Assembly (NCBI GenBank): GCA_023423795.1
Contig: JAFAEX010000311.1
Coordinates: 18,947-82,946, forward strand
DNA from: Chloroflexota bacterium
GTDB lineage: Bacteria > Chloroflexota > Chloroflexia > Thermomicrobiales > UBA6265
Direction: 5' to 3'
Length of the DNA: 64,000 nt
The notes beneath the pieces are model-generated. The model was not told where the DNA came from, did no database searches, and worked only from the letters and a program-made list of their open reading frames with translations. Position 1 is the first letter of the stretch, and every line of letters starts with the position of its first letter. Positions 1,413 through 2,590 of the stretch are shown here, piece by piece. The position numbers and the translations under genes are program-made.

Positions 1413-1859
1413 TCAACTGGAAAAGTCCGGCGGATTGTTGTTTCCGCCGCGCTCGTTGGTGATGTCCCGGCTGTCGTGGTGTGACCGTCCCTCGTCGAGG
1501 TCGAACGACACGTCCGCGAAATCGCCGCCGCTTGCGTCGATGGTCGCCGGGCCGCCGCTGTTGCCGATCGCAAACGACGAATTCACGTCCACGTTTCCGC
1601 CGTCGAGACTCGCCCCGGGGCCGGTCACATCACCCGCGATGACCGTATTGCCGACCACCCCGCCGCCGCCGAGATCGCCGGTGGAGATCGCCCCGCTGGT
1701 CTCGACGGAGCCAGAGCCGCCGTTGCCAGCTCCCGCCGCGTTCACCTCGTCCCCGGTGTCTGCTCCCTGCGCCGCCGCGGTCCCCGCGTACCCGCCAGCG
1801 AGCACAAGCGCCACTCCCCGGCCGAGTGCACCCAATCCGCGTCCGAACAGTCCTTTCAC
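1413..1859 (-). CDS. Glycine-rich secreted hypothetical protein
   Basis: It has an N-terminal signal-like segment (MKGLFGRGLGALGRGVALVLAGGYAGTAAAQ) followed by a Gly/Asp/Asn-rich low-complexity body. I recognise no family. It is divergent from the Cys-rich gene at 1985. Confidence 0.5.
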   Translation of the reverse strand: MKGLFGRGLGALGRGVALVLAGGYAGTAAAQGADTGDEVNAAGAGNGGSGSVETSGAISTGDLGGGGVVGNTVIAGDVTGPGASLDGGNVDVNSSFAIGNSGGPATIDASGGDFADVSFDLDEGRSHHDSRDITNERGGNNNPPDFSS

Positions 1860-1984
1860 CGCGATCCCCCATCACGTATCGGCGGATAGCGCTCCCCCGC
1901 GCCGCTGGCCCGCCGAAGATCAATTTCCAGTATTGTTGTGCATTGTACGTCCACATCTCGGACGCCGGACAGGGGGGGAGAGCC

Positions 1985-2590
1985 TTGGAACCGAGGCGAT
2001 TCGACGGGTTGGCGCGCTCGGTCGGGCGCCACGGAACGAGGCGTTGGGCATTCGCAGTGCTTGGCGGGCTGGCGACCGGCCTGATGAGGCATGATTCGGC
2101 GTCCGTAGATGCCCAATCGCCGGGTGCGCGGTGTGCCCGGGCAGGTTCGGCCTGTAGCGCTGCCAGTCCTTGTTGCCCGGGCGCTCGCTGCGCCGGTGGT
2201 CGCTGCCGCTGCATCAAGGGGCGGACCAAACAGTGCGGCGGCGTCTGCGCAAACCTGAAGAACGACGCCAGCCACTGCGGGAAGTGCCGTAAGAAGTGCC
2301 CGGAAGGGTCGCGCTGCAAGGGCGGCAAGTGCGTGTGTGCCGCTGGCAACCTGTGCCGCAAGCGGTGCGTCGATACGAAAACCGATCCCCGGAACTGCGG
2401 CGATTGCGGAACCAAGTGCCGGCGCGACCTTCGCTGCATCGAAGGCAAGTGCCGATGCGACTATGGCCTGGAGGCATGCAACGGCTACTGTTACGACACG
2501 ATGCACGATCGGGCCAACTGCGGATGGTGCTTCAACCAGTGTGATTGGAACCAGTTCTGCAACTGGGGAACGTGTCAGACCTACCAGTAG
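1985..2590 (+). CDS. Cysteine-rich secreted protein (twin-arginine leader, ICK-spaced module + 3 Stig1-like CxxC repeats)
   Basis: I call a TTG start at 1985, preceded by GGGGGGAGAG (1973-1982). The leader is MEPRRFDGLARSVGRHGTRRWAFAVLGGLATGL. The mature part has 30 Cys by my count. The track ORF begins at 1826, but its first 53 codons lack coding character. Confidence 0.7.
   Translation: MEPRRFDGLARSVGRHGTRRWAFAVLGGLATGLMRHDSASVDAQSPGARCARAGSACSAASPCCPGARCAGGRCRCIKGRTKQCGGVCANLKNDASHCGKCRKKCPEGSRCKGGKCVCAAGNLCRKRCVDTKTDPRNCGDCGTKCRRDLRCIEGKCRCDYGLEACNGYCYDTMHDRANCGWCFNQCDWNQFCNWGTCQTYQ

Follow-up and report, generated by a model that had tools for sequence, protein, structure and literature searches.

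The window analysed here is a 64,000-nucleotide stretch of contig JAFAEX010000311.1 from an uncultured Thermomicrobiales bacterium of the Chloroflexota (assembly GCA_023423795.1, positions 18,947 to 82,946), in which a gene at 1985-2590 on the plus strand encodes a cysteine-rich protein (CRP) with a twin-arginine-type leader. We propose that CRP is a secreted, soluble array of disulfide-stabilised mini-proteins, exported by a twin-arginine translocation (Tat)-type route, oxidised outside the membrane and used for extracellular binding, a reading to which we assign a probability of roughly 0.6. The evidence comes from the modular architecture of the protein, from the cysteine-rich family that shares its leader, and from other genomes, where genes of this family are associated with those for a MauE-thioredoxin fusion and TatA.

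Gene and modular architecture of CRP

The gene and the parts of its product are as follows.

1985..2590, plus strand: CRP gene with a TTG start and its stop codon at 2588-2590, supported by the Pfam Stig1 and NF041328 profiles and by alignment with the N-terminus of the homologue P0218
1971..1982, plus strand: purine-rich ribosome-binding site AGGGGGGGAGAG, read from the sequence, ending 2 nucleotides ahead of the TTG start
1985..2113, plus strand: twin-arginine-type leader, amino acids (aa) 1-43, from leader alignment A3, a leader hidden Markov model (HMM; E 1.9e-13) and hydropathy
2114..2209, plus strand: N-terminal six-cysteine module with inhibitor-cystine-knot (ICK) spacing C-x6-C-x5-CC-x4-C-x4-C, net charge +5
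2210..2335, plus strand: Stig1-like repeat 1, eight cysteines, spacing 7-3-9-2-3-5-4, net charge +9
2336..2455, plus strand: Stig1-like repeat 2, eight cysteines, spacing 5-3-9-2-3-5-4, net charge +6
2456..2587, plus strand: Stig1-like repeat 3, eight cysteines, spacing 6-3-9-2-3-5-4, net charge -4

The product comprises 201 aa, 43 in the leader and 158 in the mature part, and all 30 cysteines fall within the latter; the open reading frame (ORF), its coordinates and its cysteine count are as given in the original prediction, which had been made from the sequence alone. Read from TTG 1985, the N-terminus matches that of P0218 residue for residue (MEPRRFD versus MDGKQFD), and the G+C content at third codon positions (GC3) is 0.76 in the CRP frame versus 0.56 in an overlapping minus-strand ORF (1856-2665). 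At the level of sequence comparison, the ORF is confirmed as a real gene with TTG 1985 as its best candidate start. That it is unexpressed or a decaying pseudogene would agree with a GC3 below that of neighbouring genes (0.85-0.90), and with the lack of a promoter-like site in a scan for an E. coli-type consensus, which may not be the host's. We give this hardly any weight, however, since CRP has an uninterrupted frame and a strong ribosome-binding site, all 30 cysteines are in register with the family and the HMM E values range from 1e-17 to 1e-28. An exact-sequence look-up returned no record for the protein, and scans of genome and metagenome collections for close relatives returned no orthologue.

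The three repeats of the mature part share the cysteine spacing x-3-9-2-3-5-4, and their assignment to the Stig1 family, made originally by eye, passes a profile check: Pfam PF04885 matches CRP in three stretches with 61.7 bits (E 9.7e-17), against a gathering cutoff of 24.1 bits. The link to Myxococcus drawn at the same time held in part, with the NCBIfam profile NF041328 (MXAN_6577-like cysteine-rich protein) scoring 99.0 bits (E 2.2e-28), 1 bit under its cutoff of 100, whereas the Myxococcus cysteine-rich repeat TIGR02232, which had been named, gave no match at E<=1 in NCBIfam. Relatives of CRP in the database carry the NCBI name MXAN_6577-like cysteine-rich protein. An exhaustive phmmer search with CRP recovered 8041 cluster representatives at E<=1e-3 among 1.84 billion, the top ones being multi-repeat proteins of 500-5000 aa, mostly with lipoprotein-type N-termini. 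The cysteine pattern is conserved in homologues, as expected for a genuine repeat family in the original prediction, with columns that vary little or not at all when CRP is aligned with 20 homologue segments. The CRP repeat is therefore best described as a common, database-annotated bacterial extracellular module that is functionally uncharacterised.

Structure prediction, which had been proposed as a check, yielded a confident AlphaFold2 model of mature CRP (predicted local distance difference test score, pLDDT, 91.1; predicted TM-score, pTM, 0.71) built with 61 homologues, which shows an all-beta protein with two hairpins in every repeat. A sequence-profile search of the PDB with CRP gave a chance match to reelin alone (E 0.36), and a Foldseek search of the PDB with the whole model gave nothing significant, the best matches being cysteine-rich domains of TNFR and EGF arrays (E ~0.1). 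The first 20 residues are weaker in the whole-protein model (pLDDT 54-75), and the first module was remodelled alone with its own homologues, reaching a pLDDT of 83. At least 20 of the 27 PDB matches of this second model are ICK toxins (TM-score 0.5-0.76), on which it superposes with a root-mean-square deviation (rmsd) of 1.0-2.5 Å over 28-35 residues, at E values of 0.5-10 that are not significant for a 35-residue chain. They include ProTx-I (TM-score 0.68, rmsd 1.2 Å), ProTx-II (rmsd 1.0 Å) and Aptotoxin VII (43% identity, rmsd 1.4 Å), as well as grammotoxin, DkTx, hanatoxin and conotoxin TVIIA. At the sequence level, toxin families fall below their Pfam cutoffs against the first module (Conotoxin, E 0.15; Toxin_12, E 0.58; Dickkopf_N, E 0.025). 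Its spacing of 6-5-0-4-4 fits the ICK consensus, which we take to be C-x3-7-C-x3-6-C-x0-5-C-x1-4-C-x4-13-C. Together with the almost exclusive recovery of ICK toxins by the model, even if not significant, and the stand-alone occurrences described below, this bears out the earlier description of a knottin-spaced first module; the knottin reading is supported for the spacing and for the predicted structure.

The mature protein is hydrophilic, with a grand average of hydropathy (GRAVY) of -0.69 and no hydrophobic stretch, and it contains no membrane anchor, lipobox or wall-binding domain. We infer that CRP is a small secreted protein stabilised by some fifteen disulfides. The last repeat is acidic and aromatic, with nine W/Y/F residues.

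The leader family and its association with MauE-thioredoxin and TatA genes

The leader of CRP consists of the N-terminal segment RRFDGLARSV, the motif T-R-R-W-A-F, a hydrophobic region WAFAVLGGLATGLM, whose core reaches a maximum Kyte-Doolittle value of 1.83, and a basic c-region (R35/H36), with cleavage probably at V-D-A/Q, between alanine and glutamine. A consensus of ten aligned leaders reads M-D-x3-F-D-x-L-x3-L-A-x3-S-R-R-x-A-L-[KR], after which come a core of Gly/Ala/Leu and a terminal A-x-A. Judged by its residues, this consensus is a canonical Tat motif behind a conserved N-terminal extension, and CRP's own motif appears to be a weakened form of it. A regular expression for the leader, put forward in the original prediction for a genome-wide search, was run on the window and finds two genes, CRP and the following.

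37036..37482, minus strand: second leader-family gene, GTG start after AGGAGGG, 148 aa, leader HMM E 2.4e-15

Its product is extremely lysine-rich with 14 cysteines, has a C-x6-C-x5-CC-x3-C-x4-C module with a basic tail at its C-terminal end, and matches no Pfam or NCBIfam family.

Profile searches extend this family. Seeded with the repeats, they recover several small proteins that share a CRP-type leader, including P0218, which aligns over the whole CRP architecture of leader, six-cysteine module and repeats (40% identity, E 2e-25). Seeded with the leader only, they recover 30 short proteins, many of which consist of the leader and one peptide of six to ten cysteines; the spacing of the stand-alone peptides is C-x6-C-x5-CC-x2-4-C-x4-6-C, as in P0229, P0232, P0233, P0234, P0250 and P0251. 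Because it stands alone behind a CRP-type leader in many metagenomic proteins, the six-cysteine first module of CRP is an independent, recurrent unit. Across 1.27 Mb of Thermomicrobiales DNA, the leader-only HMM finds solely cysteine-rich cargo, namely the two genes of the window and two ORFs of locus L010. Among 54 distinct leader proteins, an ICK-spaced module directly follows the signal in 22 and a Stig1 core is present in 20, and the mature parts have a median cysteine content of 17%, with at least 8% in 47 of 51. Median identity is 47% in the leader versus 28% at non-cysteine mature positions, a contrast that is inflated in sequences chosen by their leader. Most members retrieved have no informative name in the source databases, and the FDxL-SRR leader offers a simple annotation marker for this cysteine-rich cargo family.

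Two settings of these genes are of separate interest. The two L010 ORFs are tandem leader genes on the plus strand (18274-19248 and 19252-19905) with 42 and 26 cysteines, in the Thermomicrobiales metagenome-assembled genome AVDCRST_MAG59; they lie ~4 kb downstream of an L,D-transpeptidase gene in a locus without a MauE-thioredoxin gene. In loci L086-L090, genes for stand-alone leader-plus-knottin peptides (P0229, P0239) appear to be mobile, as they adjoin genes for phage-type integrases and DDE transposases.

An association with disulfide chemistry emerged from the neighbourhoods of homologues. The gene of the leader-Stig1 protein P0174 (L004) neighbours one for a 512-aa protein in which MauE is fused to two thioredoxin/redoxin domains (MauE-Trx). 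In L086, the gene of the knottin-like peptide P0229 is 2.7 kb away from that of an orthologue of this fusion (45% identity). For a reverse test, we picked 80 metagenome loci (0.56 Mb) solely for MauE-Trx and scanned them with the leader HMM, using 80 nuoH loci (1.18 Mb) as a control. A leader ORF was present in 42 of the 80 MauE-Trx loci versus one of the 80 controls, and clustering of neighbouring ORFs placed TatA in 16-20 of 80 versus none; since the controls come from a different taxon sample, this enrichment is best judged by tight same-strand adjacency and not by the ratio alone. Dereplication at 95% identity left 72 distinct MauE-Trx loci, of which 35 contain a leader ORF, 27 have it within 600 bp on the same strand and 14 encode TatA. 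The loci lacking a leader ORF mostly have less than 1 kb of flanking sequence.

The linked loci match Pfam TatA_B_E (E 2e-15 to 5e-13), MauE with AhpC/Redoxin/Thioredoxin domains and, in the cargo, Stig1, and complete three-gene operons of cargo, MauE-Trx and TatA are present in L142, L161, L169 and L160. A tblastn search with CRP of the window matched cargo genes in 26 loci, with L142 (44%) as the top match. MauE has been shown to substitute for DsbB in E. coli, with a periplasm-facing CXC active site, and is described as DsbB-like, with 8.2% of entries fused to thioredoxin-fold domains (bioRxiv 10.64898/2026.03.05.709764). The CXC motif is retained in the present fusions (scan pattern P[DQ]C[HR]CFGQ). 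On inspection of their sequences, the MauE domain is followed by a fifth hydrophobic helix, so that, with the MauE topology of the same study, their thioredoxin domains should face the outside of the cell.

Further features of these operons were recorded. Locus L160 has tandem TatA/B/E-family genes on the plus strand (2593-2871 and 2885-3142) directly after MauE-Trx, so that a TatB-like component may accompany the TatA-like one in some MauE-Trx operons. Nine loci (L142, 5340-5642; L161, 5945-6247; and seven others) encode a conserved, helical ~100-aa protein downstream of TatA; it was weighed as a candidate partner, but the nine loci are closely related. In L099, three large paralogous leader proteins with 74-110 cysteines each are encoded on the plus strand (2466-3902, 6461-7696 and 8617-10260) around a single MauE-Trx gene, so that several cargo genes can share one oxidase locus. 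A glycosyltransferase gene beside MauE-Trx in L086 was considered as a general partner and discarded, as it was seen in three near-identical loci.

Genomic setting and the 2.27-kb insertion

Compared with related Thermomicrobiales, the CRP gene lies within an insertion, and the features around it are these.

1376..3650, no strand assigned: 2.27-kb insertion holding the glycine-rich, CRP and Imm5-like genes
1413..1859, minus strand: glycine-rich 148-aa ORF, rich in Gly/Asp/Asn with a Sec-like N-terminus, divergent from CRP across a 125-bp gap, GC3 0.79
2890..3405, plus strand: Imm5-like putative immunity protein of 171 aa (Pfam PF21805, E 5e-37), the downstream member of the insertion
701..1381: response regulator (Response_reg and GerE) of a NarL-type pair
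102..701: histidine kinase (HisKA_3/HATPase_c) of the same pair
3652..5229, minus strand: L,D-transpeptidase (YkuD, SH3_3 and LGFP) with the N-terminus PFDRAGRLSRRTLLAAGAA

NuoH of the window shows up to 86% identity to proteins of metagenome-assembled genomes named Thermomicrobiales, Sphaerobacterales or Chloroflexota, and its NuoK recurs unchanged in three metagenome assemblies (SRR13243531, SRR34875122 and ERZ24910768). In the three closest syntenic relatives (L009, L008 and L007), nuoH-nuoJ-nuoK and the L,D-transpeptidase gene are followed directly by the response regulator and histidine kinase genes, and the convergent stops of the L,D-transpeptidase and response regulator are 44-315 bp apart, compared with 2.27 kb in the window. 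A Stig1 gene is absent from the position of CRP in all 80 Thermomicrobiales nuoH loci examined. The insertion shows no flanking repeats, tRNA, integrase or Rfam feature, and no terminator-like site or promoter-like site of the E. coli type; G+C content falls to 0.61 at 2250-2850, across the 3' part of the CRP gene. The NarL-type pair that the original prediction had placed next to CRP is present, although a functional link to it did not hold up: the pair ancestrally adjoins the L,D-transpeptidase, including in relatives that have no CRP gene, leaving a role as CRP regulator unsupported. Since the CRP gene came in a 2.27-kb insertion that is absent from three related genomes, its position beside the two-component pair is incidental.

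The divergent glycine-rich neighbour is found as described originally, 125-bp gap included; its product matches no Pfam or NCBIfam family and has no homologue in 170 fetched loci. Neither this gene nor the Imm5-like gene occurs in any locus that holds a CRP homologue, and both were set aside as partners. A two-gene competition cassette, in which CRP would be a toxin and the Imm5-like protein its cognate immunity protein, can be imagined because both genes are co-oriented in one insertion and CRP is cationic and cysteine-rich like many antimicrobial peptides. We consider such a cassette highly improbable given the absence of an Imm5-like gene from all 26 homologue-holding loci, the 300-bp gap between the two genes and the lack of a toxin domain in CRP (Pfam, NCBIfam); moreover, Imm5 is known as a cytoplasmic partner of DYW-deaminase and CdiA-CT toxins that is often an orphan in polyimmunity loci (PMC3482391).

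Independently of CRP, the Imm5-like gene of the window is an orphan, with no recognisable toxin gene nearby. The L,D-transpeptidase has a good twin-arginine signal of its own in its N-terminus, PFDRAGRLSRRTLLAAGAA, closely preceded by an FD motif. A 27-nucleotide direct repeat (25 of 27 identical) links the gap between the CRP and Imm5-like genes (2734-2760) to the 5' end of the L,D-transpeptidase gene (5182-5208), where it encodes PSDAHPFDR on the minus strand; this may be a recombination scar.

Proposed export, function and relation to known systems

The CRP precursor carries a family-specific twin-arginine leader with an FDxL helix-like motif, S/T-R-R, a moderately hydrophobic core and an A-x-A-type site. 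We hypothesise that this leader brings the precursor to the Tat translocase while it is probably still reduced, hydrophilic and for the most part unstructured, and that the 30 cysteines would then be oxidised to about 15 disulfides outside the membrane. In related organisms, oxidation would be carried out by the dedicated MauE-(thioredoxin)2 protein encoded beside the cargo, often with TatA. The mature product is predicted to form a four-module rod without a membrane anchor, in which a knottin-like cap precedes three Stig1 repeats of paired beta-hairpins. The Tat system normally rejects unfolded proteins, yet it tolerates hydrophilic unstructured segments of 100-120 residues (PMC6708511); this tolerance, the hydrophilic nature of CRP and the MauE-Trx linkage of its homologues are the grounds on which we favour export of a reduced precursor followed by oxidation outside.

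Several observations weigh against this reading. The twin-arginine motif of CRP itself, T-R-R-W-A-F-A, is degenerate and has no K/R at +5, and the Tat-signal HMMs of Pfam and NCBIfam do not match the protein. Mature CRP (158 aa) is longer than the 100-120 aa shown to cross Tat unfolded. The window contains no MauE-Trx (E<0.1), TatA or TatC gene, and the oxidase link of its CRP is drawn by homology only. To these must be added the Foldseek matches of the CRP models, which are statistically not significant, and the different taxon sample of the control loci.

The first of these points would be explained if CRP were exported unfolded by Sec, with the twin arginines just part of a positively charged n-region and a general oxidase forming the disulfides. 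Many Gram-positive-type signal peptides have such an n-region; the CRP motif deviates from S/T-R-R-x-F-L-K at three positions, no Tat HMM matches it, and no tat gene lies nearby in the window. In addition, the Stig1-repeat homologues recovered by the exhaustive search have, for the most part, ordinary signals of the Sec or lipoprotein type, so the fold needs no Tat. We nevertheless judge Sec export unlikely, because the consensus of the leader family is a near-perfect Tat motif that includes the +5 K/R, because 14 of the 72 distinct MauE-Trx loci have a TatA gene immediately next to the fusion, compared with none of the 80 control loci, and because the CRP c-region contains basic residues. Basic residues at this position are typical of Sec avoidance. 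The Tat-type leader first proposed for CRP is thus favoured by the family consensus S-R-R-x-A-L-K and by TatA beside homologues, while Tat-signal HMMs stay silent on CRP itself.

Tat is understood to export already folded proteins, and a cargo of about 17% cysteine cannot plausibly fold without disulfides. This paradox would be resolved if the cysteines bound metal, as zinc ribbons or iron-sulfur-like centres, and the protein folded in the cytoplasm before export by Tat; Tat substrates are typically cofactor proteins, and the C-G-x-C-x3-C-P core resembles part of a ferredoxin motif. However, Sec or lipoprotein signals direct the export of thousands of homologous repeats, the number of cysteines is even (30, with eight per repeat), the ICK-type first module matches disulfide-knotted toxins, and the conserved partner is a disulfide-forming enzyme whose thioredoxin domains are expected outside the cell. 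We consider metal binding distinctly improbable.

With regard to function, the first three modules of CRP are strongly cationic (+5, +9 and +6), whereas the last is acidic and aromatic-rich, a distribution which leads us to propose extracellular binding. The likeliest role may be that of an antagonistic or defensive effector that acts on anionic envelope polymers or on a receptor of other organisms. Our best guess of an outward-directed binding role is favoured by the absence of an anchor, by a conserved leader with variable cargo, although in a biased sample, and by settings that include an insertion, integrases and transposases; the CRP gene itself would have arrived within the 2.27-kb insertion. 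The main alternative on function keeps the same export and assigns CRP a structural or adhesive role at the cell surface, or in a sheath or matrix. Its closest large homologues are very long multi-repeat lipoproteins resembling surface stalks, and its model is a rigid rod with a weak likeness to TNFR and EGF arrays. This alternative deserves real, if minor, weight against the small size of CRP, its lack of an anchor, lipobox or wall-binding domain, the marked variability of the cargo behind the conserved leader (in the same biased sample) and the location of family members in insertions or beside integrases or transposases.

CRP and its family can be compared with several known systems. Plant STIG1 proteins are single-domain ligands for receptor kinases of pollen, secreted by means of a Sec signal. 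With STIG1 and GRIM REAPER (PF04885), CRP shares the repeat core C-x3-C-x9-CGxC-x3-C-x5-C-x4-C in a secreted, cysteine-rich, extracellular protein; it differs in its three tandem repeats, its Tat-type leader and its bacterial host. MXAN_6577-like proteins (NF041328) and Myxococcota-type multi-repeat lipoproteins share the repeat with ~40% identity over three repeats, but have mostly lipoprotein or Sec signals and 5-30 repeats, and lack the FDxL-SRR leader and, mostly, the six-cysteine cap. ICK toxins (ProTx-I/II, Aptotoxin VII and O-superfamily conotoxins) have the spacing of the first CRP module, of which stand-alone 28-35-aa versions occur behind a CRP-type leader, although there is no significant sequence or profile match between them. 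The KNOTTIN database lists bacterial knottins as sequences only, without experimental structures (PMC5753296).

The closest parallel to the proposed pathway is the MauA/MauE system. MauA is small and disulfide-dense, with a long Tat-type leader, and its maturation needs MauE and a thioredoxin-like partner, MauD. Similarly, genes of the leader family adjoin one for a fusion of MauE with two thioredoxin-like domains, and TatA is frequently present as well; the cargo, however, has no relationship to MauA, neither a tryptophan tryptophylquinone (TTQ) cofactor nor a mau cluster is present, and the oxidase is a single fusion protein. By analogy, the family also resembles venom-peptide precursors such as the conotoxin superfamilies, which combine a conserved leader with a highly variable mature region on a cysteine framework, though it has no propeptide and would use bacterial export machinery. 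Literature searches found nothing on bacterial Stig1, MXAN_6577, Tat in combination with cysteine-rich proteins in Chloroflexi, MauE with TatA, or this leader, in line with the earlier characterisation of such proteins as essentially uncharacterised. The domains are known to databases, the CRP gene adds a member to a known domain family, and the system can be regarded as a variant of the MauA/MauE paradigm.

Tentatively, and at somewhat short of even odds, we suggest that, in soil bacteria of the Chloroflexota type, TatA and MauE-(thioredoxin)2 form a dedicated module for secretion and folding that serves a hypervariable knottin/Stig1 repertoire with the FDxL-SRR leader, and that the gene in the window is an orphan cargo of this module. 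If this is correct, the operon of cargo, MauE-thioredoxin and TatA would be a natural system for the handling of oxidation-dependent substrates by Tat, which would here export proteins that are unable to fold until oxidised outside, and it would show roles of MauE-type oxidases outside methylamine metabolism. It would also be a bacterial equivalent of the way in which venom or defensin peptides are produced. The leader family provides many candidate bacterial knottins, which may serve as ultra-stable scaffolds for peptide engineering and possibly include new antimicrobials.

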